This document shows, in pieces, positions 4,774-55,331 of a stretch of 64,000 nucleotides of DNA. Position numbers and translations under genes: made by a program. The stretch covers positions 143,477 through 207,476 of the forward strand of contig CAZIZK010000001.1 of NCBI GenBank assembly GCA_964544225.1, written 5' to 3'. Position 1 is the stretch's first letter. Each line of letters begins with the position of its first letter. The notes under the pieces were generated by a model. That model saw only the letters and a program-made list of their open reading frames with translations. It searched no databases and had not been told where the DNA came from. The DNA comes from an uncultured Candidatus Saccharibacteria bacterium (lineage in GTDB: Bacteria; Patescibacteriota; Minisyncoccia; Phycocordibacterales; UBA9973).

Positions 4774-4845
4774 TTAATTATCTCCGTTGAAAGGTTCCTG
4801 AGCTTGCTTAGGGACCTTTTTTATTTAAGTGGTATAATACAAAAT

Positions 4846-5439
4846 ATGAAAAAGTACGAAATAAAAAGTTTTAATATTGGGGAGTTAAAGGGTATAAGTA
4901 GCAAGAATATCGAGGAACACTTGAAACTATACGCGGGGTATGTAAACAATGCCAACTTGATAATAGAAAAGATTGGCGAGTATATGGATGAACCCGAAAA
5001 GAACATGTATGTGATAAGCGAACTGCAACGCCGGTTCTCATTTGAGTTCAATGGTATACGTAATCATGAGTACTATTTTGCTTCACTTGCAGGTGGTGCA
5101 CACCCTCTTCCAGAAGGCTCAACTCTAAAAGCACAGATTGAAAAGCAGGCTCCCTCATTTAATACATGGCTTGCGGGATTCAAGATGCTTGCACTGACAA
5201 GGGGTGTAGGCTGGGCCGTACTATACTGGGACAAAGAAAATGCTCAGTTAACTCATGCATGGGTAGATGAACAACACCTAGGCCAACTCAATGGACTCTC
5301 CCCAATACTTATGCTCGACATGTGGGAACATTCATTCGTTGCCGACTATCAGCCATCTGGCAAGAAGCAGTATGCTGAAGACTTCTTCACCAACTTGAAC
5401 TGGGAAGTAATAGAACAGAATTTCAAAAACGCACAATAA
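4846..5439 (+). CDS. Fe/Mn superoxide dismutase
   Basis: SOD family features: N-terminal EEHLKLYAGYVNN region, HEYYF, C-terminal DMWEHSFVADYQ (compare the DVWEHAYY signature). Start is the ATG at 4846, 8 nt after a TGGTATAAT extended -10. Confidence 0.85.
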   Translation: MKKYEIKSFNIGELKGISSKNIEEHLKLYAGYVNNANLIIEKIGEYMDEPEKNMYVISELQRRFSFEFNGIRNHEYYFASLAGGAHPLPEGSTLKAQIEKQAPSFNTWLAGFKMLALTRGVGWAVLYWDKENAQLTHAWVDEQHLGQLNGLSPILMLDMWEHSFVADYQPSGKKQYAEDFFTNLNWEVIEQNFKNAQ

Positions 5440-5542: not shown

Positions 5543-5672
5543 TTCGTTACGTAACCAGTACAGAACACGAAATAGTTCTTGAAAAAAGACTTGCGCAGGA
5601 GTTTAGAAAATAAACGAACAAAGTGAGTATTATTTTCTTGAACGACGAGCAGAGGAAATTTTCACCAGAAAA

Positions 5673-7013
5673 TTATACGTGCTTTTTGAAAGAAGCTATT
5701 TCGTATTCGGTGCTGGTTTTAAAAACCCAATAAATAATCAATACATAAATCGCCACGAATAATATGAGTGATAATTTTGTAATATTTAAATTGGCATATG
5801 GTAATGATGCGAATATTTCAGTGACTTTAAAAGTGTAGGCACTGCCTATGTGTGTAACATAAGAAAAAGGTAATGCCAGCGTGTTCGATAGAAGGGCTGT
5901 GCTTCCAGCGATAAAACCAAGAAGCATAAGGTATGGGATAAATGGCAATATAAGTGCATTGGCAAACAGTGACACCACCGAGAAACTTCCCATAACATAC
6001 ATAATGTACGGCACGACCATAATACTTGCCGACACAGTAGATACTATCACCTCGCGGAATCCTTTGAAATTCGGTACCCACATAAAATACTTCATGACTT
6101 TTACAGGAACCATAATGATCCCAAATGTTGCAAGTACTGATAGATGAAATGAAACATCGAAAATACTCATAGGGTTATAAACAAGCATCACAAGGCATAC
6201 GAACAATAATGCCCGCAATGCATCGTATGTGCGCCCTGTGGAACGTGCCAACAATGCTATTACAGCCATAGCCCCTGCACGCACCGCTGTAGCCGAGGCA
6301 CCTGCCATAAGGACAAACAACAATATCGCAATCCCAGCAGAAACATAAGCAATCGTTCCATACACAACGAGGCCAATAGTCCTCATCACAGCCTCGGCGA
6401 CGACCATGACATTGTACCCAGACAGTGCCACTATGTGTATTGTGCCTGTGGTGACAAAAATCTCTTTGTCCTCGTTACTTATGCCACCCTTTGCCCCGAG
6501 CAATAATCCATCCAGAAATCCTGCATCACGCATGGGTAAAATATTAAAAAGTGAATCCTCGAATTTATTTCGGATAAAAAATAAACCTTTCTTTAACCTA
6601 CTACCACCCTCACCCACCTTTTCAAATTTAGCATTTTTGATAATAAAAAAAGTATCATAAACTTTTAGATACTTTACATAGTCGAACTCTTTCCCTGTAT
6701 TGGTTATAAAATTCTCAGGCAGTGTTAAGACCCCTTCGACCCTAACTACGTCACCGTATTTATATTTGAAAGATTCATTGTCTTTGTATACAGGAACAAT
6801 AATATTAAAATCGGTACCCACTGGGGTAACTGTATACCGTACCTGAGTGTCCCTTGTGTCTGGGTAGTCAGACACCTGTGCTGTAAAAGTAACACTACTG
6901 CCTACTGATTTATAGAATTTATCAGGAGGTGTAGGTAAAAAGTAAAAACCCCGAATTATTATAATAAGTATAAGTATACAAACTATTACAATTTCTTTTG
7001 TGTAGCTGCGCAT
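5673..7013 (-). CDS. ComEC/Rec2 N-terminal module (DUF4131-like plus polytopic competence domain) encoded separately from its MBL domain
   Basis: N-terminal TM helix plus an OB-like soluble region, then 8-10 TM helices with ComEC competence-domain character (IHIVALSGYNVMVVAEAV, FHLSVLATFGII). Confidence 0.7.
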   Translation of the reverse strand: MRSYTKEIVIVCILILIIIIRGFYFLPTPPDKFYKSVGSSVTFTAQVSDYPDTRDTQVRYTVTPVGTDFNIIVPVYKDNESFKYKYGDVVRVEGVLTLPENFITNTGKEFDYVKYLKVYDTFFIIKNAKFEKVGEGGSRLKKGLFFIRNKFEDSLFNILPMRDAGFLDGLLLGAKGGISNEDKEIFVTTGTIHIVALSGYNVMVVAEAVMRTIGLVVYGTIAYVSAGIAILLFVLMAGASATAVRAGAMAVIALLARSTGRTYDALRALLFVCLVMLVYNPMSIFDVSFHLSVLATFGIIMVPVKVMKYFMWVPNFKGFREVIVSTVSASIMVVPYIMYVMGSFSVVSLFANALILPFIPYLMLLGFIAGSTALLSNTLALPFSYVTHIGSAYTFKVTEIFASLPYANLNITKLSLILFVAIYVLIIYWVFKTSTEYEIASFKKHV

Positions 7014-33792: not shown

Positions 33793-33827
33793 AAAATTCC
33801 CCACAGGTCCGACCTGTGGGGAATTTT
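33793..33827. terminator. bidirectional palindromic terminator (AAAATTCCCC...GGGGAATTTT family)
   Basis: aaaattccccacaggtccgacctgtggggaatttt. Confidence 0.7.
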
Positions 33828-33838
33828 AATTGAAACTA

Positions 33839-36356: not shown

Positions 36357-36427
36357 CGGGGTGTAGTACAGTGGTAGTATACTCGGTTTGGGACCGAGAG
36401 ATCAGAGTTCGATTCTCTGCACCCCGA
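36357..36427 (+). tRNA. tRNA-Pro (anticodon TGG), no encoded CCA
   Basis: Hand-folded cloverleaf: acceptor cggggtg/caccccg, D-arm gtac-agtggta-gtat, anticodon stem ctcgg/ccgag with loop tttggga, T-arm cagag-ttcgatt-ctctg. 71 nt. Confidence 0.8.
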
Positions 36428-36452
36428 CAGACAGTTGTTTCGTTTAAAATAT

Positions 36453-36523
36453 GCGGGATTAGTTTAATGGTAGAACTGCAGTTTTCCAAACTGCTGGCAG
36501 GAGTTCGATTCTCCTATCCCGCA
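36453..36523 (+). tRNA. tRNA-Gly (anticodon TCC), no encoded CCA
   Basis: Acceptor gcgggat/atcccgc, anticodon stem gcagt/actgc with loop tttccaa, T-arm aggag-ttcgatt-ctcct. 71 nt. Confidence 0.85.
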
Positions 36524-36530
36524 CAAAAAA

Positions 36531-36950
36531 CTATAATATCACATTATCTATTACCCTCACCCGTGCATTGCGACTCTGCATATCTAGGTAAACTATAAAT
36601 ACATCAAACTGCCATGGGGTATTCCCTACTCTTTTGTGTATTAGATAGGTCTGGATTGTCCTTGATAGCCTCTTTAGCTTCCAAGGGTGTAGATTGTCCT
36701 CGGGCCTAGGCTTGTTACTATCGGCAGGACCATCCCACCCTGGCCACCCTTCCTTTATAAATGGGCGGGAAACAGACTTTACCTCTATAAAATAGATCTT
36801 GTCCTCCTTTTTAGCAATTATGTCTATTTCACCCCACTTTTTCGTATAATTCCTCTCTTCAATAGTAAATCCATGTTTCATGAGAAACGTACAGGCGACA
36901 TCTTCGCCTAACTTCCCTACTTTCTGTTTATCAGAAGTAAAGTTCTTCAT
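36531..36950 (-). CDS. YraN/UPF0102 family endonuclease-like protein
   Basis: GKLGEDVACTFLMKHGFTIEERNY...GEIDIIAKKEDKIYFIEVKS is the UPF0102 pattern. Confidence 0.75.
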   Translation of the reverse strand: MKNFTSDKQKVGKLGEDVACTFLMKHGFTIEERNYTKKWGEIDIIAKKEDKIYFIEVKSVSRPFIKEGWPGWDGPADSNKPRPEDNLHPWKLKRLSRTIQTYLIHKRVGNTPWQFDVFIVYLDMQSRNARVRVIDNVIL

Positions 36951-37073
36951 GTTTATATTATACCCCTATAATAACAATATATCCATATTGTTACATGTGT
37001 AACCAGGTAAAGTGTGCCACGTGAAACATAATTTATGTTAATTACCCTAAAAACTTCATTTGTCCGATAAAAT

Positions 37074-37191
37074 CCTTACAAAATAAGGGTTTTATAGAAA
37101 ATAGTCTTTTAAATAGTCTTTTTTAAATATGTCTCTTATAAACAATGCACACATAGTTATCCACATTTTCCTTATAAAATAAGGGTTTTAT
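37074..37191 (+). repeat. two copies of a 22-nt hairpin repeat (ccttaYaaaataagggttttat) flanking a tandem aaatagtctttt duplication, in the tRNA-flanked intergenic region
   Basis: 37074-37095 and 37170-37191 differ by one nucleotide. Each folds as ccctta-N5-taaggg followed by ttttat (mini-terminator-like). Confidence 0.5.
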
Positions 37192-37197
37192 GTGTGT

Positions 37198-37227
37198 AAA
37201 AAGACGCCCCATAAAGGGCGTCTTTTT
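37198..37227. terminator. bidirectional intrinsic terminator downstream of tRNA-Arg (minus strand)
   Basis: aaaagacgccc cataa agggcgtcttttt. Confidence 0.65.
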
Positions 37228-37240
37228 AGATTGTATTCTG

Positions 37241-37312
37241 TGCATCCAGAGGGATTCGAACCCCCAATGACGGTTCCGAAGACCGTAGTGATATCCATTT
37301 CACCATGGATGC
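37241..37312 (-). tRNA. tRNA-Arg (anticodon TCG), no encoded CCA
   Basis: Reverse complement folds as acceptor gcatcca/tggatgc, D-arm gtga-aatggata-tcac, anticodon stem acggt/accgt with loop cttcgga, T-arm ggggg-ttcgaat-ccctc. 72 nt. Confidence 0.75.
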
Positions 37313-37461
37313 AAGCTTATTTATTAATACAAAATTTAGTATACACTAAATAACACTATTTTAAAAGAACCCTTGTAAAATATACTTATAATTAAAATTG
37401 CAATAATAAACAAAAAGTAGTATAATCTAAGTCAGTTTTATATATGCATTATTAATTTAAT

Positions 37462-37532
37462 GCGGGATTGGTTTAGTGGTAGAACACGTCCTTGCCAAGG
37501 ATGAGACAGGAGTTCGATTCTCCTATCCCGCA
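37462..37532 (+). tRNA. tRNA-Gly (anticodon GCC), no encoded CCA
   Basis: Acceptor gcgggat/atcccgc, anticodon stem cgtcc/ggatg with loop ttgccaa, T-arm aggag-ttcgatt-ctcct. 71 nt. Confidence 0.85.
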
Positions 37533-37549
37533 CAAAATATAGTAACTCT

Positions 37550-39088
37550 ATGAGTGAAAACCTAAAAATAAATACGAGTAACATCCCGGATTATGTTACA
37601 CATGTAACAAATACACTCGAAAAAGCTGGTTTTGAGGCTTTCATCGTGGGTGGTTGTGTTCGTGATCTTATAATAAATAGGGTTCCAAAGGATTGGGATA
37701 TAACAACCAACGCTAATCCAGAGGAAATAATAGGTTTGTTTGAAAAGACTGTATACGAGAATACTTTCGGTACTGTTGCCGTATGTATACCTAAAATCAA
37801 TAAAATATCCGAAGATGTTTCAGGTGAAACATTAGAATCTGTTACACATGTAACAAAAGAGGCAGAAAGTAAGTATTATATCGTAGAAGTAACTCCATAC
37901 AGGAAAGAAGGGAAGTATACCGACAACAGGCACCCAGATAGCGTCCAATTCTCCCAAAACATAGGGGATGACCTCCAAAGGCGTGACTTTACTATCAATG
38001 CTATGGCTTTTAATAGTAAAGGACAGTTAATTGACCTTTATAAAGGACAAGAAGACCTAAAGGACAAGGTTATACGCACAGTGGGGGACCCAGATACAAG
38101 GTTCCAGGAAGATGCCTTGCGCCTGCTCCGAGCTATCCGATTTGCCACCGAGCTTGATTTTGCAGTTTCATATGAAACTATGGAGTCTATAGTAAGGAAT
38201 GCCGACTTGCTAGCCAATATATCAAAGGAGAGGGTGAGGGATGAATTCGTAAAGATAATAGCCAGTCGTAATGGGGCACAAGGTGTAGCCATGCTACAGA
38301 AGCTAGGCTTGATGAAACATATAATCCCCGAACTTGCAGAGGGTATAGGTTGTGACCAGGGTGGCGCACATATATATGATGTGTTTGAACACCTACTAGG
38401 TGCACTAGGCCACGCTATCGATAAGGGTTACTCGGTCCAGATCCGCCTGGCGGCACTGTTACACGACATAGGCAAGCCACGAACTCGCAGACCAGGGGTA
38501 AAGAAGGCGTACACATTCTACGGCCATGAAGTGGTGGGTGCCCGTATGACAAAGAAGATACTGGAAGGGTTAAAGTTCGATAAGCAAACTATAGACTTTG
38601 TTACCAATATGGTGCGCCGACACATGTTCTTCTCTGACACTGAGCAGATTACACTATCTGCAGTACGCAGGGTAATACAGAATGTAGGTCCGGAACATAT
38701 CTGGGAACTGATGGAGATCCGTGAGTGCGATAGGGTAGGTATGAAGAAGAACGAGGCTCCATACCGACTACGCAAGTACCACGCCATGATCGAAGAAGCT
38801 CTGCGTGACCCAATAAGTGTTAAACAGCTGAAAGTAGATGGCAAAATACTGATGGAAGAATTGGGTATCAAAGCCGGCCCACGTATGGGCTGGATACTCA
38901 ATGCATTACTAGAGGAAGTGCTAGATGACCCAAATAAAAATACCCGCGAGTACTTAGACGGCAGGGTAGGTGAGTTGGATAAATTGTCAGATACTGAGCT
39001 ATCAGCACTGGGTGAAAAAGCTAAAGAAAAGAAAGAGGAATTGGAAGGGGAAGAGGTAGCCAAACTTCACAAGAAGCATAAAGTATAA
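37550..39088 (+). CDS. cca: CCA-adding tRNA nucleotidyltransferase with HD domain
   Basis: Pol-beta-type head (FIVGGCVRDLI...DWDITT), tRNA-NT body (RRDFTINAMAF, ERVRDEF) and HD motif (LLHDIGKP). Confidence 0.9.
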   Translation: MSENLKINTSNIPDYVTHVTNTLEKAGFEAFIVGGCVRDLIINRVPKDWDITTNANPEEIIGLFEKTVYENTFGTVAVCIPKINKISEDVSGETLESVTHVTKEAESKYYIVEVTPYRKEGKYTDNRHPDSVQFSQNIGDDLQRRDFTINAMAFNSKGQLIDLYKGQEDLKDKVIRTVGDPDTRFQEDALRLLRAIRFATELDFAVSYETMESIVRNADLLANISKERVRDEFVKIIASRNGAQGVAMLQKLGLMKHIIPELAEGIGCDQGGAHIYDVFEHLLGALGHAIDKGYSVQIRLAALLHDIGKPRTRRPGVKKAYTFYGHEVVGARMTKKILEGLKFDKQTIDFVTNMVRRHMFFSDTEQITLSAVRRVIQNVGPEHIWELMEIRECDRVGMKKNEAPYRLRKYHAMIEEALRDPISVKQLKVDGKILMEELGIKAGPRMGWILNALLEEVLDDPNKNTREYLDGRVGELDKLSDTELSALGEKAKEKKEELEGEEVAKLHKKHKV

Positions 39089-39605: not shown

Positions 39606-39640
39606 ACTTTACCCCTATTTTAATAGCATGTCAACAACAC

Positions 39641-39671
39641 AAAATCCCCTAGGTATTGCCTAGGGGATTTT
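39641..39671. terminator. palindromic terminator (AAAATCCCC...GGGGATTTT family)
   Basis: aaaatcccctaggtattgcctaggggatttt. Confidence 0.65.
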
Positions 39672-39686
39672 GTTAAAAAAATGAAT

Positions 39687-43075: not shown

Positions 43076-43163
43076 ATGAAAAACTCCTGCAAGGGAGTTT
43101 TTCATTTTGTGGTACAATTACCTTATCGGGGTAATATTTTATATTTAAAGATTACAAATAATT

Positions 43164-44546: not shown

Positions 44547-45488
44547 ATGACAAAAGTTTTAATAATGGGTGCGTGTGGTCAGATAGGGGTAGAGTTAACA
44601 TTGGCACTCAGGAAGATCCATGGCGATGCCAATGTGATAGCAAGCGATATAAAGGAGAACCACCCACTACTTGCATCTGGGCCATTCGTACAACTCGACG
44701 CAACTGATGCTGTGAAGACCAAGGGTATAGTAGAGGAGAACGGTATCACTGAAATATATTTACTAGCAGCACTACTTTCTGCCACAGGTGAGCAGAACCC
44801 AAAGCTCTGCTGGGATCTAAACATGGCAAGCCTTCGCCAAGTGCTGGACCTGGGAGTAGAGAAGAATTTGAAGATATTCTGGCCTTCATCTATAGCAGTA
44901 TTCGGCGCTACAACACCGAGAGATAATACAGCTCAGAAGACTATAATAGAACCAACAACTATGTATGGTGTTACTAAATACGCAGGTGAACTACTATGCC
45001 AATACTATGCGAACCGTTATAGTTTGGATGTACGTTCTGTTCGCTACCCAGGGCTCATAAGTTGGAAGTCAGCCCCAGGTGGTGGAACTACCGATTACGC
45101 TGTTGAGATATTCTACGAAGCGATAAAGAATAATAAATACACAAGCTTCCTCTCAGAAAATAGCTACCTACCTATGATGTATATGGACGATGCCATCCGT
45201 GCAACTATCGAGCTAATGCAGGCAGATAAGAGCAAGCTATCTACACACATGTCATACAACTTATCTGCGATAAGCTTCTCTCCAAAAGAAATTGCCGAAG
45301 AAGTAGCGAAGCATATGCCAGGTTTTGAAATATCATATGCACCAGACCACAGGCAAAAAATTGCCGACGGTTGGCCAGCAAGTATAGACGACACTTTGGC
45401 CCGCACCGACTGGGGCTGGAAGCATGAATTTGATCTAGCCAAAATGACTGAAGTAATGTTGATAAATTTAAAAGAGAAATTAAAGTAA
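44547..45488 (+). CDS. tdh: NAD-dependent L-threonine 3-dehydrogenase (GalE-like short-chain type)
   Basis: N-terminal Rossmann fold MTKVLIMGACGQIGVEL and epimerase/dehydratase fold; gene context immediately upstream of kbl. Confidence 0.75.
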   Translation: MTKVLIMGACGQIGVELTLALRKIHGDANVIASDIKENHPLLASGPFVQLDATDAVKTKGIVEENGITEIYLLAALLSATGEQNPKLCWDLNMASLRQVLDLGVEKNLKIFWPSSIAVFGATTPRDNTAQKTIIEPTTMYGVTKYAGELLCQYYANRYSLDVRSVRYPGLISWKSAPGGGTTDYAVEIFYEAIKNNKYTSFLSENSYLPMMYMDDAIRATIELMQADKSKLSTHMSYNLSAISFSPKEIAEEVAKHMPGFEISYAPDHRQKIADGWPASIDDTLARTDWGWKHEFDLAKMTEVMLINLKEKLK

Positions 45489-45511
45489 AGAGTTAATTTA
45501 AATCTTTACTT

Positions 45512-45602
45512 GGCATATCTTTTCTTTGGGTACGGATTTTTTGAAGCTTAAAAAATCCTGAAGTTTGCTCGCCGTCGCTCGCAAAACCCCCTCGAAAAGA
45601 TA
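45512..45602 (-). repeat. MITE-like / REP-like repeat, copy B (inverted relative to copy A at 53643-53730), in the tdh-kbl intergenic region
   Basis: Reverse complement aligns at approx. 85% identity with 53643-53730 (shared gggggttttg.g.gcgacggcga.caaacttcagga...aaaaaatc.gtaccc). Imperfect approx. 15-bp terminal inverted repeats (atcttttcgaggggg / acccaaagaaaagat). Confidence 0.65.
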
Positions 45603-45647
45603 CGCCTGCGATGATTTAAATTGGTAAAAATTTTATAATATAAAAAT

Positions 45648-46856
45648 ATGTATACAAAAAAGATAAAAGATTTTATAGAAGGTGATTTGCAAGCAATAAA
45701 AAATGCTGGCAAGTTCAAGGTGGAGAAGGTGATAGATGGTGCCCAAGGTACACATGTAAATGTCGGGGGTAAAGATTTGATAATGTTCGCTTCGAATAAT
45801 TATCTAGGTATGGCCAACCACCCAACACTGGTTGAAGCTGCAAAGAAAGGTTTGGATCAATACGGCTTTGGCACAGCATCAGTCCGCTTCCTATCCGGTA
45901 CACAGACAATCCACCACGAGCTGGAGCAGAGGATTGCCAAATTCATCGGCACCGAAGATGCCATAGTTTACTCTACGAACTTCATGGCGAACCTAGGGCT
46001 CTTTGCAACATTGGTAAATGAAAGTTTTGGTGCGACTGAGCCATGGAAAGATGTCATATATAGTGATGCCAACAATCATGCATCTATCATAGACGCATTT
46101 AAACTTTGCAAAAAAGAAAATCTGGATAAAAGGATCTACAAAGGTGGTGACCTAGATATGCTGGCACAAATGTTGGAAGAAGATAAAGATAAAAATTATA
46201 GAAATAAAATAATAGCAACCGATGGCATATTCAGCATGGAGGGGACAATGACTAACCTACCAAAGTTAATCGAGCTTGCAAACAAATACGAGGCATTACT
46301 GTTCGTAGACGATGCGCACGGTGTGGGTGTAGTGGGCGAACATGGCCGTGGAACTGCCGAGGCACAAAATGTATTAGGGCAAATCGATATTATCAGTGGA
46401 ACCTTCGGCAAGGCTCTCGGTGGTGCTGTCGGTGGATACATTGGTGGAAGTAGTGCACTTGTAGAACTACTTCGCCAGAAATCTCGCACATACCTTTTCT
46501 CCAACGCATTGCCAGCAAGTGTGGCACTAGCGGGTATCGCATCATTAGATTTACTCGAATCAAACAATAATCTAACAAATAACGTAAAAGAGTCTGCACT
46601 ATATTTCCGCCAGAAATTAGAAGAGAACGATCTTCCAACACTACCAGGCAATCATGCTATCGTGCCACTGATGATAGGTGATGCGAGCCGTGCAAGCGAA
46701 TTATCAAAGAAATTGTACGAAGAGGGTATCTATGCTGTTTCACTCTCATTCCCGGTTGTACCAGAGGGTGAAGCCCGCATCCGCTTCCAACTATCGGCCC
46801 TACATACAAAAGACGATATCGACAAAGCAATCGAAGCAATAAAAAAAGTTTGGTAA
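45648..46856 (+). CDS. kbl: 2-amino-3-ketobutyrate CoA ligase (glycine C-acetyltransferase)
   Basis: PLP-dependent AOS family: SNNYLGMANHP, DDAHGVGVVG, PLP-lysine context GTFGKALGGAVGGY. Confidence 0.85.
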   Translation: MYTKKIKDFIEGDLQAIKNAGKFKVEKVIDGAQGTHVNVGGKDLIMFASNNYLGMANHPTLVEAAKKGLDQYGFGTASVRFLSGTQTIHHELEQRIAKFIGTEDAIVYSTNFMANLGLFATLVNESFGATEPWKDVIYSDANNHASIIDAFKLCKKENLDKRIYKGGDLDMLAQMLEEDKDKNYRNKIIATDGIFSMEGTMTNLPKLIELANKYEALLFVDDAHGVGVVGEHGRGTAEAQNVLGQIDIISGTFGKALGGAVGGYIGGSSALVELLRQKSRTYLFSNALPASVALAGIASLDLLESNNNLTNNVKESALYFRQKLEENDLPTLPGNHAIVPLMIGDASRASELSKKLYEEGIYAVSLSFPVVPEGEARIRFQLSALHTKDDIDKAIEAIKKVW

Positions 46857-46871
46857 ACAATTAATTAAAAT

Positions 46872-46904
46872 AAAATTCCCCTAGGCCTTACCTAGGGGAA
46901 TTTT
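46872..46904. terminator. bidirectional palindromic terminator (family)
   Basis: aaaattcccctaggccttacctaggggaatttt. Confidence 0.7.
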
Positions 46905-47481
46905 ATTTAGCTTTTTTCTTAAAATATTTTCTTAAAGCAAGAATTGTCATACCACTATCAAAAATACAGAAGTATGTAACAAATAAATAATCTTTAAAAT
47001 TATGACCTGTGGTAGATAATAGTGCTACTATACTTGCAAGAGCAAACAAACCCCAGAAAGGGATATTTTCACTTTCTGGTTTTTTAATCGCACGGACAAC
47101 AGTAGGCAGTGAACCAATAGAATGGGCAATAAGTCCTATAAAAAGATTTAAAACCGGAATATCGGTAAAAACCCACAGGATAAAACTAATTATTAAAAGG
47201 ATTGTTGAAATAGTTTCAGTTTTACCCCAAAGATTTTCTGCTCTCCTAAAAATAGCTCCAACAAATACAAGTAGGGAACCAAGAAGAGTAACCCAAGCAA
47301 GCACAGTGGTGGAAACTTGGTTACCAAGCTTAAGTACACTTGCAAGATTATTTACGGCCAAACAAAGAAATACTGTTCGGGTAAATAAATTTGGGCGATA
47401 CCCACCCCTAAAAATAGCTTTAAATCCAATAAGATAGGAAGCGGAAGCAAGAAGTCCAATTAAAATATAAGTTGAATTCAT
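46903..47481 (-). CDS. hypothetical polytopic membrane protein
   Basis: Six predicted TM helices; no motif. Confidence 0.4.
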   Translation of the reverse strand: MNSTYILIGLLASASYLIGFKAIFRGGYRPNLFTRTVFLCLAVNNLASVLKLGNQVSTTVLAWVTLLGSLLVFVGAIFRRAENLWGKTETISTILLIISFILWVFTDIPVLNLFIGLIAHSIGSLPTVVRAIKKPESENIPFWGLFALASIVALLSTTGHNFKDYLFVTYFCIFDSGMTILALRKYFKKKAK

Positions 47482-47555: not shown

Positions 47556-47864
47556 ATGAATAATACACAAACAGTACAAATTAGAATAGATGCAAAGACA
47601 AAGTTAGCAGCCCAGAAAACTTTCAAGGCTCTAGGTATGGACATGTCTTCTGGAGTAAAGATATTTTTAACTCAAGTGGTCAAGGACCAGTGTTTTCCTT
47701 TTGTACCAAGTACAAAGAAGAATATTGCTTTACGCAAAGAAATAGACAAAGAAATAGCAGAAATAAAAAAGGGTGGGGTTAAAGGTTATAAAAATGCAAA
47801 AGAATTACACGAGTCTATCTTAGGAAAAAAGGAATACTCAAAATATGCTAGTTTACAAAAGTAA
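47556..47864 (+). CDS. type II antitoxin, RelB/DinJ family
   Basis: N-terminal RHH-like segment (VQIRIDAKTKLAAQKTFKALGMDMSSGVKIFLTQVV) typical of DinJ. It overlaps the downstream toxin gene by 20 nt. Confidence 0.65.
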   Translation: MNNTQTVQIRIDAKTKLAAQKTFKALGMDMSSGVKIFLTQVVKDQCFPFVPSTKKNIALRKEIDKEIAEIKKGGVKGYKNAKELHESILGKKEYSKYASLQK

Positions 47865-48123
47865 AAATTATACAAAATCCCTAAAAAAGATTTTAAGAGG
47901 TGGAAAAATTCACATTCTGGAAATAGAAATGGTTATTGATTTGTTAGCAGAAGGAAAAACTCTCCCAATCAAATATCAAGACCATTATCTGACAGGAGAA
48001 TTTACTGGATGTCGTGAATGCCACATAAGGCCAGACTTGCTCCTAATATATAAAATTGAAAAAAATATTCTAATCCTCACACTCATCGATATAGGTAGCC
48101 ACTCCAAACTTTTCGGTAAATAA
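47845..48123 (+). CDS. type II toxin, YafQ/RelE family mRNA interferase
   Basis: QDHYLTGEFTGCRECHIRPDLLLIYKIEKNILILTLIDIGSHSKLF matches the YafQ/RelE core, including the conserved His. Confidence 0.75.
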   Translation: MLVYKSKNYTKSLKKILRGGKIHILEIEMVIDLLAEGKTLPIKYQDHYLTGEFTGCRECHIRPDLLLIYKIEKNILILTLIDIGSHSKLFGK

Positions 48124-48155
48124 AATTCCCATAGGTCCGACCTATGGGAATTTTT
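48122..48155. terminator. bidirectional palindromic terminator (family) between the yafQ-like gene and glmS
   Basis: aaaattcccataggtccgacctatgggaattttt. Confidence 0.7.
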
Positions 48156-53259: not shown

Positions 53260-53610
53260 ATGATAAACATAGATAAACAAAAGGAAACTTTACAAGAAGA
53301 GAAGGTAAATTTAGAGAACGAACTCTCTGGCATGGGCTCTATTAAAAACGAAATAGGTGTATGGGTTGCGAGGCCAGAGGCCGAGACAGCTCCAGAAGCT
53401 GATGAGAACGATATGGCTTCCCGTGGTGAGGACTTTGAACTAAAGAGTTCTACAACAGAAATATTGGCAAAGAGACTCTCTGCAATAGAAACTGCAATTG
53501 CAAATATCGAATCAGGTATATATGGCAAGTGCTCTGTATGTGGTAACGATATTGAAGACGACAGACTAGAAGCAAACCCAAGCGCACAGACTTGCAAAGC
53601 CTGCATGTAA
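53260..53610 (+). CDS. DksA/TraR-family C4 zinc-finger protein
   Basis: Coiled-coil N-terminus and C-terminal CSVCGNDIEDDRLEANPSAQTCKAC (CxxC-17-CxxC). Confidence 0.7.
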   Translation: MINIDKQKETLQEEKVNLENELSGMGSIKNEIGVWVARPEAETAPEADENDMASRGEDFELKSSTTEILAKRLSAIETAIANIESGIYGKCSVCGNDIEDDRLEANPSAQTCKACM

Positions 53611-53642
53611 AATAAAATATGTTTCAAAAAAACATTAAATAG

Positions 53643-53730
53643 TTCTTGGAAAGGGGGTTTTGGGCGCGACGGCGACCAAACTTCAGGAGATTTTTACCAA
53701 AAAATCGACGTACCCTTGAAAAGAAGCTAT
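53643..53730 (+). repeat. MITE-like / REP-like repeat, copy A
   Basis: ttcttggaaagggggttttgggcgcgacggcgaccaaacttcaggagatttttaccaaaaaatcgacgtacccttgaaaagaa; imperfect TIRs ttcttggaaaggg / cccttgaaaagaa; internal AT hairpin gattttt-acc-aaaaatc. Confidence 0.65.
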
Positions 53731-53759
53731 TTGATGTTTTTTTCTGTTATAATTAAATT

Positions 53760-55331
53760 ATGTCATTTTCCCGAGTATATGCTGCACAGCCATATTTACT
53801 CAAAGGTAAATTGGTAACAGTCGAAGTGGATATTACAAAGAATACCCTTCATGCATTTACTATGGTTGGCCTACCGGACAAAGCCGTCGATGAAGCAAAG
53901 GACCGCATGGCCTCTGCACTAAAGAACTCGGGCTTCAACTCTCCAAAAAGTCAGAATCAAAAAATAGTTATATCACTCTCACCAGCAGACCTGAAGAAGG
54001 AGGGTGCGTATTTCGACCTGGCTATCGCATTGGCGTATTTATTGTCTGCCGAAGAAATAGATTTCAATGCCGAGGGTCGTATATTCCTAGGTGAGTTAGC
54101 CCTCAATGGTGAACTGCGCCCGATTCGTGGGGCACTACCCCTGGCCCAAGAAGCAAAGAGGCTCGGTTATAAAGAGATATTTCTTCCACGTGCCAATGCT
54201 GTTGAAGCAGCACTTGTAAGTGGTATTGATGTATATGGTGCAGACACATTGAATGATGTTGTAGATCATATCCACCAAGTCAAATATGATAAGAAGGGTA
54301 ACCCTCTGGAGCCAGAAAGGAAGAAGTTAATAAAAGAAAAGGAAGCAGTAATAGAGAAAGTTGTAAAAGATTTCAAGACAGATTTCCAAGATATCCGTGG
54401 ACAGGAAAGCGCAAAGAGGGCACTAGAAATTGCGGCCGCAGGTGGCCACAATATTGCACTGTCAGGCCCACCAGGTACCGGCAAGACCATGCTTGCCCGC
54501 GCATTTTCACACATACTACCCGACTTGGACAACGAAGATATACTGGAGATCACAGGCATCCACTCGATAGTTGGCTTACTCGACGGTGCACTCGTCACCG
54601 AGCCACCTCTACGTTCACCGCACCATACAGCAAGCTATGTATCGATTATCGGTGGTGGGGCAAATGTGAAGCCAGGCGAAGTGACTCTAGCTCACAAAGG
54701 TGTATTGTTCCTCGATGAATTTCCAGAATTTGAAAAGAAAGTTCTAGAAAGTTTACGCCAGCCACTGGAAGACAACATGGTGTCGATATCACGTGCTCGT
54801 GGTTCTGCTACTTTCCCTTAGAACTTTATACTCATTGCTGCCATGAACCCATGCCCGTGTGGACACAAAGGCAACAAGCAAAAAGCCTGCATTTGTAAAC
54901 CAAACGATATTGATAGATACAATAGAAAATTGTCTGGCCCCATCATGGACCGTATCGATATATGGGTTACAGTCGGTGCGGTAGAGTACGACGCACTTTC
55001 CGAGACAGCGCCAAGTGGTACAAGTACAAATATAATAAAGGAGCGTGTCCGTATTGCCCGCGATATCCAAGGCAAGAGGTTAAAGCAAGCAACCCGCAGG
55101 ATAAAACTAAATAGCGAGATGAATGTAAAAGATCTGAACACTTTCGCCCCAATTTCAAAAGATGTAAAAGATGTTTTGAACCAAAGTGCCGAGAAGCTCC
55201 AGCTGTCGGCCCGCGCATATCACCGCACTATCAAACTTGCCCGTACTATTGCCGATATTGAACACAGTGCTGAGATAGAGATCCCTCATATCCTCGAAGC
55301 CCTGCAATACAGGCCAAAGATAAATCAATAG
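53760..55331 (+). pseudogene. comM: YifB/ComM-family Mg-chelatase-like AAA+ ATPase, interrupted by a single in-frame TAG at 54819-54821
   Basis: ORFs 53760-54821 and 54843-55331 are in the same frame. Translation ...[25 protein letters not shown]... is colinear with intact homologues (TFPARF.LVAAMNPCPCG). Walker A GPPGTGKT and the CPCG zinc motif are present. Confidence 0.75.

Follow-up and report, generated by a model that had tools for sequence, protein, structure and literature searches.

The 64,000-nt window analysed here (positions are counted from its first letter) carries a multi-copy, non-coding intergenic palindrome of about 120 nt (range 73-194, median 121 nt), built as a 25-30-bp AT-rich stem capped by an asymmetric three-way junction of two hairpins, the AT-rich P2 and the GC-rich P3. 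Three copies lie in the window and, in total, about 80 further true copies were found beyond it, in Patescibacteria MAGs and in metagenomes. The initial annotation had recognised the first two as copies of a dispersed element, a proposal that the third window copy and the relatives bear out. The family is previously undescribed, and a literature search by sequence and keywords found no description of the repeat. On balance, we favour the reading that these copies represent a new family of REP/ERIC/Correia-like non-autonomous intergenic repeats of Patescibacteria/CPR genomes, whose conserved head would be recognised as a single strand.

Copy A, whose orientation on the + strand (GGTAC...CTGAAG...AAAACCCC) is called forward (fw) throughout, forms a full hairpin at 45493-45624 (covariance model score 103.8 bits). 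It lies 4 nt past the stop codon of an SDR-type tdh-like gene (44547-45488) and 23 nt ahead of the start of kbl (45648-46856), in a spacer of 159 nt. Copy B (53626-53743, 79.7 bits) is fw on the - strand and lies 15 nt past the stop of a dksA/yteA-like gene (53260-53610) and 16 nt ahead of the start of comM/yifB (from 53760), in a spacer of 149 nt. The placement of the two copies in tdh-kbl and dksA-like-comM spacers of about 150 bp each, as first described, was thus correct. As all four flanking genes are on the + strand, the two copies are oppositely oriented relative to transcription. In copy A the three-way-junction core (45528-45591) has the order GGG, TAC, P2, CTGAAG, P3, A, CCCCC, with P2 at 45534-45558 and P3 (TTTGC-TC-GC-CGTC-GC-TC-GCAAA) at 45564-45585; the core of copy B occupies 53653-53715 on the - strand, with P2 at 53689-53706, P3 at 53659-53680 and a bulged C at 53726.

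Copies A and B have in common a core of about 65 nt. The identity of roughly 85% that had been proposed for them holds for this core, where the best blocks reach 88% over 43 nt ungapped and 92% over 37 nt, but not for the full span first noted, in which 45512-45602, taken as its reverse complement, aligns with 53643-53730 and 71 of 95 columns (75%) are identical. We found the GC-rich segment CTGAAGTTTG[C/G]TCGCCGTCGC...CAAAACCCCC in both copies, and also the internal AT hairpin with a kept stem and a different loop, GGATTTTTT-GAAGCTT-AAAAAATCC in A and GATTTTT-TGGT-AAAAATC in B, both as initially reported. From A to B, the P3 stem changes from TTTGC/GCAAA to TTTGG/CCAAA, a compensated change, and the outer stems differ in sequence while the pairing is intact in each copy. 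What had been taken for terminal inverted repeats of about 15 bp are indeed complementary arms, but merely the inner part of the longer arms that close the two full hairpins. Likewise, the GC contrast to the surroundings exists but is modest rather than sharp: 63% for P3 plus junction, 48-51% for the whole core, 32-33% for the spacers and 40% for the window.

The third copy, copy C (5568-5703, - strand), is divergent or degenerate and was revealed by a refined covariance model, R2 (17.9 bits, E 0.06). It shares arms and P2 with copy B, its P3 is swapped for a longer AT-rich arm, and it keeps the same overall shape as copies A and B, with a bulged C at 5695. It stands between the convergent genes 4804-5439 (+) and 5673-7013 (-), and the stop codon of the latter, a 446-aa ORF, is inside the repeat, so that the element provides the last codons of that gene. 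We also noticed that the comM/yifB gene directly 3' of copy B, which encodes an Mg-chelatase-like AAA ATPase, is split into two ORFs, 53760-54821 and 54843-55331, corresponding to TIGR00368 positions 8-336 and 345-499; a frameshift, a pseudogene and an assembly error are all conceivable causes.

The window contains other repeats as well. A second, unrelated family of terminator-like palindromes, AAAATTCCCC(T/A)NAGG-loop-CCTNNGGGGAATTTT, is present at 33794-33828, 39636-39672, 46868-46904 and 48118-48154; terminator-like palindromes at 46872-46909 and 48117-48154 bracket a 192-aa ORF and a relB/parE-type toxin-antitoxin pair (47556-48123; Pfam). A four-tRNA cluster extends over 36357-37532, in which two tRNA genes have an identical 31-nt 3' end, and a 42-nt inverted repeat, TTGTTACATGTGTAACCAGG..., at 36988-37029 and 37815-37856 flanks part of it.

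Relatives were retrieved with one core 21-mer, CTGAAGTTTGNTCGCCGTCGC, and the fetched loci (L numbers), 8-kb stretches around the copies, amount to about 0.5 Mb in all. Among species-representative genomes the 21-mer gave 34 stretches, 31 of which were full copies in at least 22 MAGs titled Paceibacterota, Nomurabacteria, Saccharibacteria or Patescibacteria group, with up to 5 exact matches in one MAG. A metagenome scan with the same 21-mer added 48 loci, nearly all true copies, while the viral scan gave no copies and the phage and plasmid collections no similarity to the repeat. Run over the fetched loci, the covariance model called 93 sites, including clusters of three or four per locus (four in 13 kb in L055, three in 6.3 kb in L040, three in L036). 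The density, excluding the copy behind each fetch, is about 1 per 30 kb and equals that of the window. Three Bacteroidota matches (L003, L009 and L018) and L075 contain the 21-mer by chance, on the antisense strand of the DTTLRDGEQTSGV motif of leuA-like (2-isopropylmalate-synthase-like) genes, which calls for caution in pattern-based censuses of the repeat; the match in L064 was rejected as a GC-rich chance match.

The closest relative of the window is the MAG CAZXCN01 (L022), with about 80% nucleotide identity over 5 kb. Its copy A is identical to ours, arms included, and the flanking genes are just 75-87% identical. Loci titled Saccharibacteria (L010, L012, L015, L016, L020, L022, L023, L027 and L028) and loci titled Paceibacterota or Nomurabacteria (L004, L005, L017, L026 and L036) are syntenic housekeeping loci with 67-87% nucleotide identity, and the two groups of titles are equally far from the window, at about 70-72% in shared genes. 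Some of these MAG labels are therefore probably too coarse or wrong, and since labels of this kind are unreliable for the purpose, we do not claim a spread across phyla.

The common fold is strongly supported by the covariation over copies that the initial annotation had proposed as a check. A covariance model was built from 39 copies (alignment A2). On the given structure 92-93% of cells are paired, and changes on both sides are found in 15 (A2) to 20 (alignment A4) of 26 pairs. None of 500 shuffles was as good on the structure measures, sliding the partners by 1-3 columns made the signal collapse, and folding z-scores range from -3 to -5.6. Covariation supports every helix. In P2, double changes occur across the family in 6 of 9 pairs (GGGTTTTTT/AAAAAACCC, GGACTCTTT/AAAGAGTCC, GGACCATTT/AAATGGTCC), and insertions are tolerated in its loop, a GC-rich hairpin in L043 8093-8223 and an AT-rich insertion in L035 3554-3673. 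The distal stem of P3 covaries (GC/GC, GCAC/GTGC, GGCT/AGCC, GCGC/GCGC), the CGTC loop and the TC..TC internal loop staying constant, and in L055 (6105-6225 and 2719-2839) the whole of P3 is exchanged for an unrelated 36-nt GC-rich hairpin, GACGTTGGACAYCTGC-TTT-GCAGATGTCCAACGTC. In copies A and B the junction is closed by GG(G)/CC(C) and has the order TAC, P2, CTGAAG, P3 and one A; the unpaired bases TAC and CTGAAG are near-invariant in the family. Most copies also have a single bulged base (C > T > A), which in the fw reading occupies a fixed place in the 5' arm, 12-13 bp away from the junction.

Below the junction, the arms are complementary in every copy (773 Watson-Crick pairs in 31 copies) and differ in sequence. 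They follow only a loose consensus, AAAAATTTTAAAA(T)AT-C-AAC-TTTTTT ... AAAAAA-GTT-ATATTTTAAAATTTTT, the information of which has dropped to about zero some 27 nt away from the core; compared in pairs, distal arms share 38% identity. Conservation of the arms is limited to subfamilies. One of them, subfamily B, with arms AAATAG-C-TTCTT / AAGAACTATTT in copy B, also includes copy C, L012 and L027; a long-arm subfamily, GAATTACGAAACT...AGTTTCGTAATTC, is found in L065 (two copies), L032, L036 and L081. Subfamilies coexist in one genome; copies B and C have their arms in common, and L065 has its two long-arm copies. The existence of subfamily-specific arms indicates that the arms travel with the element, diverge fast and stay complementary, and together with the loose consensus (AAAATAT-C-AAC TTTTT) it rules out the idea that arms are unrelated between copies. 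In the orthologous pair L006 and L011, all 4 arm differences are compensated and about 45 nt of core are identical, the flanking genes being 75% identical. Template-switch 'quasipalindrome correction' is a generally known process and could contribute to such perfect, fast-evolving arms, so that arm covariation alone is no proof of selection for structure.

The two strands of the element are not equivalent. Among the arms of 62 non-redundant copies, isolated mismatches in the fw reading are A.C in 40 cases and G.T in 11 (p = 6e-5), and the counts for core plus inner stem are 39 and 13. A.C mismatches on the fw strand mean G.U or G.T wobbles on the reverse (rv) strand, which folds better in 30 of 31 copies and also in window copy C. 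It follows from these counts that the ability to fold is maintained on one specific strand, the one reading GGGGTTTTGCGAGCGACGGCGAGCAAACTTCAGGA. Neighbours sense to fw (12:5), sense to rv (5:2) and convergent (9:2) all go with the same bias; it is therefore a property of the element itself and not of flanking transcription, and simple co-transcription as an mRNA hairpin fails to explain it. On the rv strand, the TC/TC internal loop of P3 reads as tandem GA/GA with a GACG loop, that is, as a tandem G.A motif. Two of these features, the invariance of the unpaired junction bases and the wobble bias towards one strand, indicate a sequence- and strand-specific constraint.

We also compared the occupancy of orthologous sites. 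These are often filled across species at 67-82% flank identity, for example murA-miaA in six loci and ftsZ-trxB in ten, and at shared sites arm changes are compensated and cores are about 92-100% identical, part of this core conservation being ascertainment, as copies were retrieved by the 21-mer. On the other hand, L067 has only 1 nt between the two genes that flank the L040 copy at 1794-1903, and in place of the copy at L055 9314 it has just a small unrelated hairpin. Another site holds a copy in L067 and L025 but none in L055 and L040, and has a plain terminator in L022 and in the window (43076-43107). Presence or absence is thus an indel of the whole hairpin, arms included, in genomes whose flanks are 65-76% identical, a distance at which an insertion looks the same as a deletion. 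Insertion into existing terminator hairpins, considered as an explanation of the variable arms, was rejected on account of empty orthologous sites without a hairpin, such as the L067 genes 1 nt apart. At ftsZ-trxB the main P3 type is found in L014 and variant 3 in L036, and variant 3 also occurs at unrelated sites; different P3 types at the same site argue for turnover or gene conversion. From these comparisons we infer that the element is mobile, and its retention at sites with a conserved core points to constraint after insertion and hence to a host-level or RNA function.

The MITE hallmarks with which the repeat had been credited were not recovered. Flanks at the hairpin boundaries of 61 non-redundant copies are identical as 2-mers in 6 cases, as 3-mers in 1 and as 4-mers in 0, so the suggested search for target-site duplications was negative; the termini are not conserved across the family as a whole, and no transposase-bearing relative was present in the approximately 0.5 Mb of loci. 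The alternative suggestion of a REP-like structured element fared better, considering that copies are intergenic, occur in both orientations and lie beside gene 3' ends.

A more far-reaching reading, which we judge rather unlikely, is that the repeat is more than selfish DNA and represents a new class of structured nucleic acid in streamlined CPR bacteria. One defined strand would form a three-way junction with tandem G.A pairs on a long bulged stem, as RNA or as ssDNA, and be selected at dozens of intergenic sites per genome; it might be the target of a conserved host protein, a processing or ribozyme module, or the substrate of a domesticated HUH- or recombinase-type enzyme. A serious rival to the favoured reading, though in our judgement also rather unlikely, is that of a multi-copy structured non-coding RNA gene or module, with the strand GGGGUUUUGCGAGCGACGGCGAGCAAACUUCAGGA... 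(GGGGUUUUGCGAG polarity) as the functional RNA, protein-binding, regulatory or catalytic, and the copies as selected paralogues. Such an RNA would account for a wobble bias that favours one strand whatever the neighbouring genes, for the near-invariant unpaired TAC and CTGAAG, and for syntenic retention with a core conserved far above the flanking coding DNA. It would also suit P3, whose TC..TC loop gives destabilising U.C/C.U on one strand and the classic stabilising tandem G.A on the other, and is kept in distant relatives (L030 7254, variants 2 and 3). Small riboswitches and ribozymes built round a three-way junction have a similar architecture: like purine-riboswitch-like aptamers and the hammerhead, the repeat combines P1 and two 5-9-bp hairpins with conserved junction strands, and its CUGAAG is similar to the hammerhead CUGANGA.

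However, an RNA gene of this kind would have no space or signal for its own promoter and terminator, with hairpins touching stop and start codons. Near copies A and B, sigma-70 promoter-like matches are no more common than chance would give and read in the opposite sense, none facing the rv direction. Of the 30 copies with co-directional neighbours, 19 have their favoured strand antisense to the genes on either side. Sites that vary in presence or absence and whose subfamilies turn over also speak against selected paralogues, as does the exchange of P3 for unrelated hairpins (L055 6105 and 2719; copy C), and the 25-30-bp closing stem would lock any switch. Rfam 15, whose families include hammerhead, twister, riboswitches, 6S, SRP and Y RNA, returned tRNAs only for the window at gathering score, and only miRNA-hairpin noise, with no family, for four copies at E <= 5-10. 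Small three-way-junction RNAs differ from the repeat in these respects (no Rfam match at E <= 10, the long closing stem) and also in its many copies in both orientations. The hammerhead itself was considered, as CUGAAG with GAAAC looks core-like in some variants, and was rejected: mapping of the core fails, A9 and G12 being absent in the main type, G8 varying (CTGAAA in L058 and L076) and the junction having extra bases. We saw no tRNA-like, T-loop or anticodon-loop features in the repeat, and GTAC, AAGCTT and CTGAAG, considered as restriction or methylation sites, were judged uninformative.

The position of the copies relative to genes bears on another alternative, an ordinary cis-acting hairpin evolved in place, which would act as an intrinsic terminator in both directions or as a stabiliser between cistrons, the likeness between copies then coming from shared constraint. 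Among the 62 non-redundant copies, 30 have co-directional neighbours (19 fw, 11 rv), 13 convergent and 3 divergent ones. The hairpin base is at a median of 2 nt inside the neighbouring stop codon (-2; interquartile range -8 to +10), and the next start codon is at a median of +11.5 nt from the base. A location just past stop codons, with enrichment between convergent and depletion between divergent genes, speaks for it; the consensus arms, which have an A run at the start and a T run at the end, and the plain terminator that the window has at 43076-43107 where relatives have the element, fit as well. Nevertheless, we consider this explanation improbable. Convergence cannot produce a 65-nt core of such near identity at unrelated sites and in unrelated genomes, the stem beside the T run is AT-rich, unlike the real terminators of the window (AAAATTCCCCTAGG...CCTAGGGGAATTTT), with no GC-rich stem directly before the U tract, and the terminator scan did not call the element. 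Moreover, ending transcription between tdh and kbl, at the place of copy A, would be counter-productive.

No ORF was found within the repeat. The 105 flanking proteins belong to 135 different Pfam families, all housekeeping, and neither these proteins nor the 0.5 Mb of loci included a transposase, a Y1 transposase or any linked gene. We also observed that the miaA ORF is open through the whole element in L006 (2323-3366) and L011 (4038-5006). The rv core frame is without a stop (GVLRATASKLQDFLSFKKSVP), so genes may be called too long, or the repeat may now and then be recruited to form the end of a coding sequence, in the manner of Rickettsia palindromic elements.

A folded ssDNA recombination site like integron attC, used by a tyrosine recombinase, seems very improbable to us. 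attC sites are imperfect palindromes of 60-140 nt, folded as single strands, with the strand chosen by extrahelical bases, and the repeat is similar in length, in its strand-specific folding and in the bulged base at a fixed position of one arm, beside which a weak AAC...GTT can be read; in addition, one copy abuts a Xer-like integrase gene (L040). But this neighbour occurs once among 105 flanking genes, outside any integron integrase context, and copies are single and dispersed among housekeeping genes rather than in cassette arrays. In the repeat the centre, which is the 'variable terminal structure' of attC, is conserved and the R'/R'' ends vary, the reverse of attC, and RYYYAAC/GTTRRRY is absent at the termini.

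Finally, a chance resemblance, or a piece of a flanking gene common to both sites, has practically no probability left, given that a core 22-mer with <=3 mismatches has exactly 2 sites in the window against 0 in 100 shuffles, that the covariance model built from relatives reaches scores above 100 bits (103.8 bits for A, with 79.7 bits for B and 17-19 bits for the next window match) and that dozens of copies stand at unrelated intergenic sites.

Under the favoured reading of a REP/ERIC/Correia-like non-autonomous element, the conserved asymmetric head would be recognised by a trans-acting protein encoded elsewhere. This factor would act on one strand, which may be ssDNA during spread or homogenisation through a single-stranded intermediate, or RNA. 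Once in place, a copy would be transcribed along with the genes next to it, and the host would meet its long stem as a hairpin between cistrons or in a 3' UTR, which could shield a 3' end or be processed by an RNase III-type enzyme.

The genomes of CPR/Patescibacteria measure about 1 Mb; they are strongly streamlined and considered to contain few repeats and little mobile DNA. In such hosts, a structured repeat of 120 nt that recurs about once per 30 kb, and in places once per 3 kb, is notable. Species that share just about 70% identity in their genes keep it in the same intergenic positions, with a near-invariant branched head and a strand-specific folding constraint. It can serve as a marker family for uncultured CPR lineages and as a concrete sequence for seeking the recognising protein, and it is a candidate for a cis element that punctuates operons and takes part in mRNA processing in organisms whose gene regulation is almost unknown. 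For annotation, it accounts for several odd 150-nt spacers and for ORF ends running into the repeat.

On the features tested, the family fits the formal definition of none of the MITEs, REP/REPINs, ERICs, attC sites or Rfam families, and its resemblances are distributed among several of them. Classical MITEs are likewise multi-copy, dispersed and polymorphic for presence or absence, but the conserved part of the repeat is its asymmetric centre and the termini vary. ERIC/IRU sequences are enterobacterial imperfect palindromes of about 127 bp, best conserved centrally, intergenic in either orientation, without an ORF, present in many species and very variable in copy number. The repeat is alike in length (median 121 nt), in central conservation, in its intergenic location in operons or after genes, in its occurrence in either orientation, in its conservation over many species with very different copy numbers per genome, and in its lack of an ORF. 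It is unlike them in host clade, in the branched three-way junction of its head and in sequence, as blastn against 5,426 complete E. coli genomes gave no match to it. A TA duplication has been reported for Yersinia ERICs and was not seen at the boundaries of our copies.

REPs and REPINs involve recognition of a single-stranded hairpin of one strand, can be long-lived at a site, and have neither target-site duplications nor an ORF. REPs are GC-rich palindromes of 20-40 nt, one end of which bears an unpaired GTAG or CGTC tag; a REPIN consists of two REPs in inverted orientation, and its arms are the conserved part. By contrast, our repeat is a single hairpin of about 120 nt, in which the arms vary and the asymmetric head is conserved; its GTAC is located 5' of P2 and its CGTC is the P3 loop, so neither is a foot tag. 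No RAYT gene was seen among the flanking genes in the 8-kb stretches around copies. The gene context is nonetheless the one described for REPs in PMC3733652, that is, extragenic palindromes mainly between unidirectional or convergent genes, downstream of coding regions. Correia elements (NEMIS/CREE) have conserved 26-bp terminal inverted repeats and a TA target duplication, unlike the repeat, which has neither conserved termini nor target-site duplication. Together with other bacterial MITEs, they otherwise resemble it as non-autonomous repeats of 100-150 bp that are polymorphic for presence or absence and are co-transcribed into long hairpins, as our repeat would be, and Correia hairpins are described as bound by, and cut or protected by, RNase III (PMC2649163).
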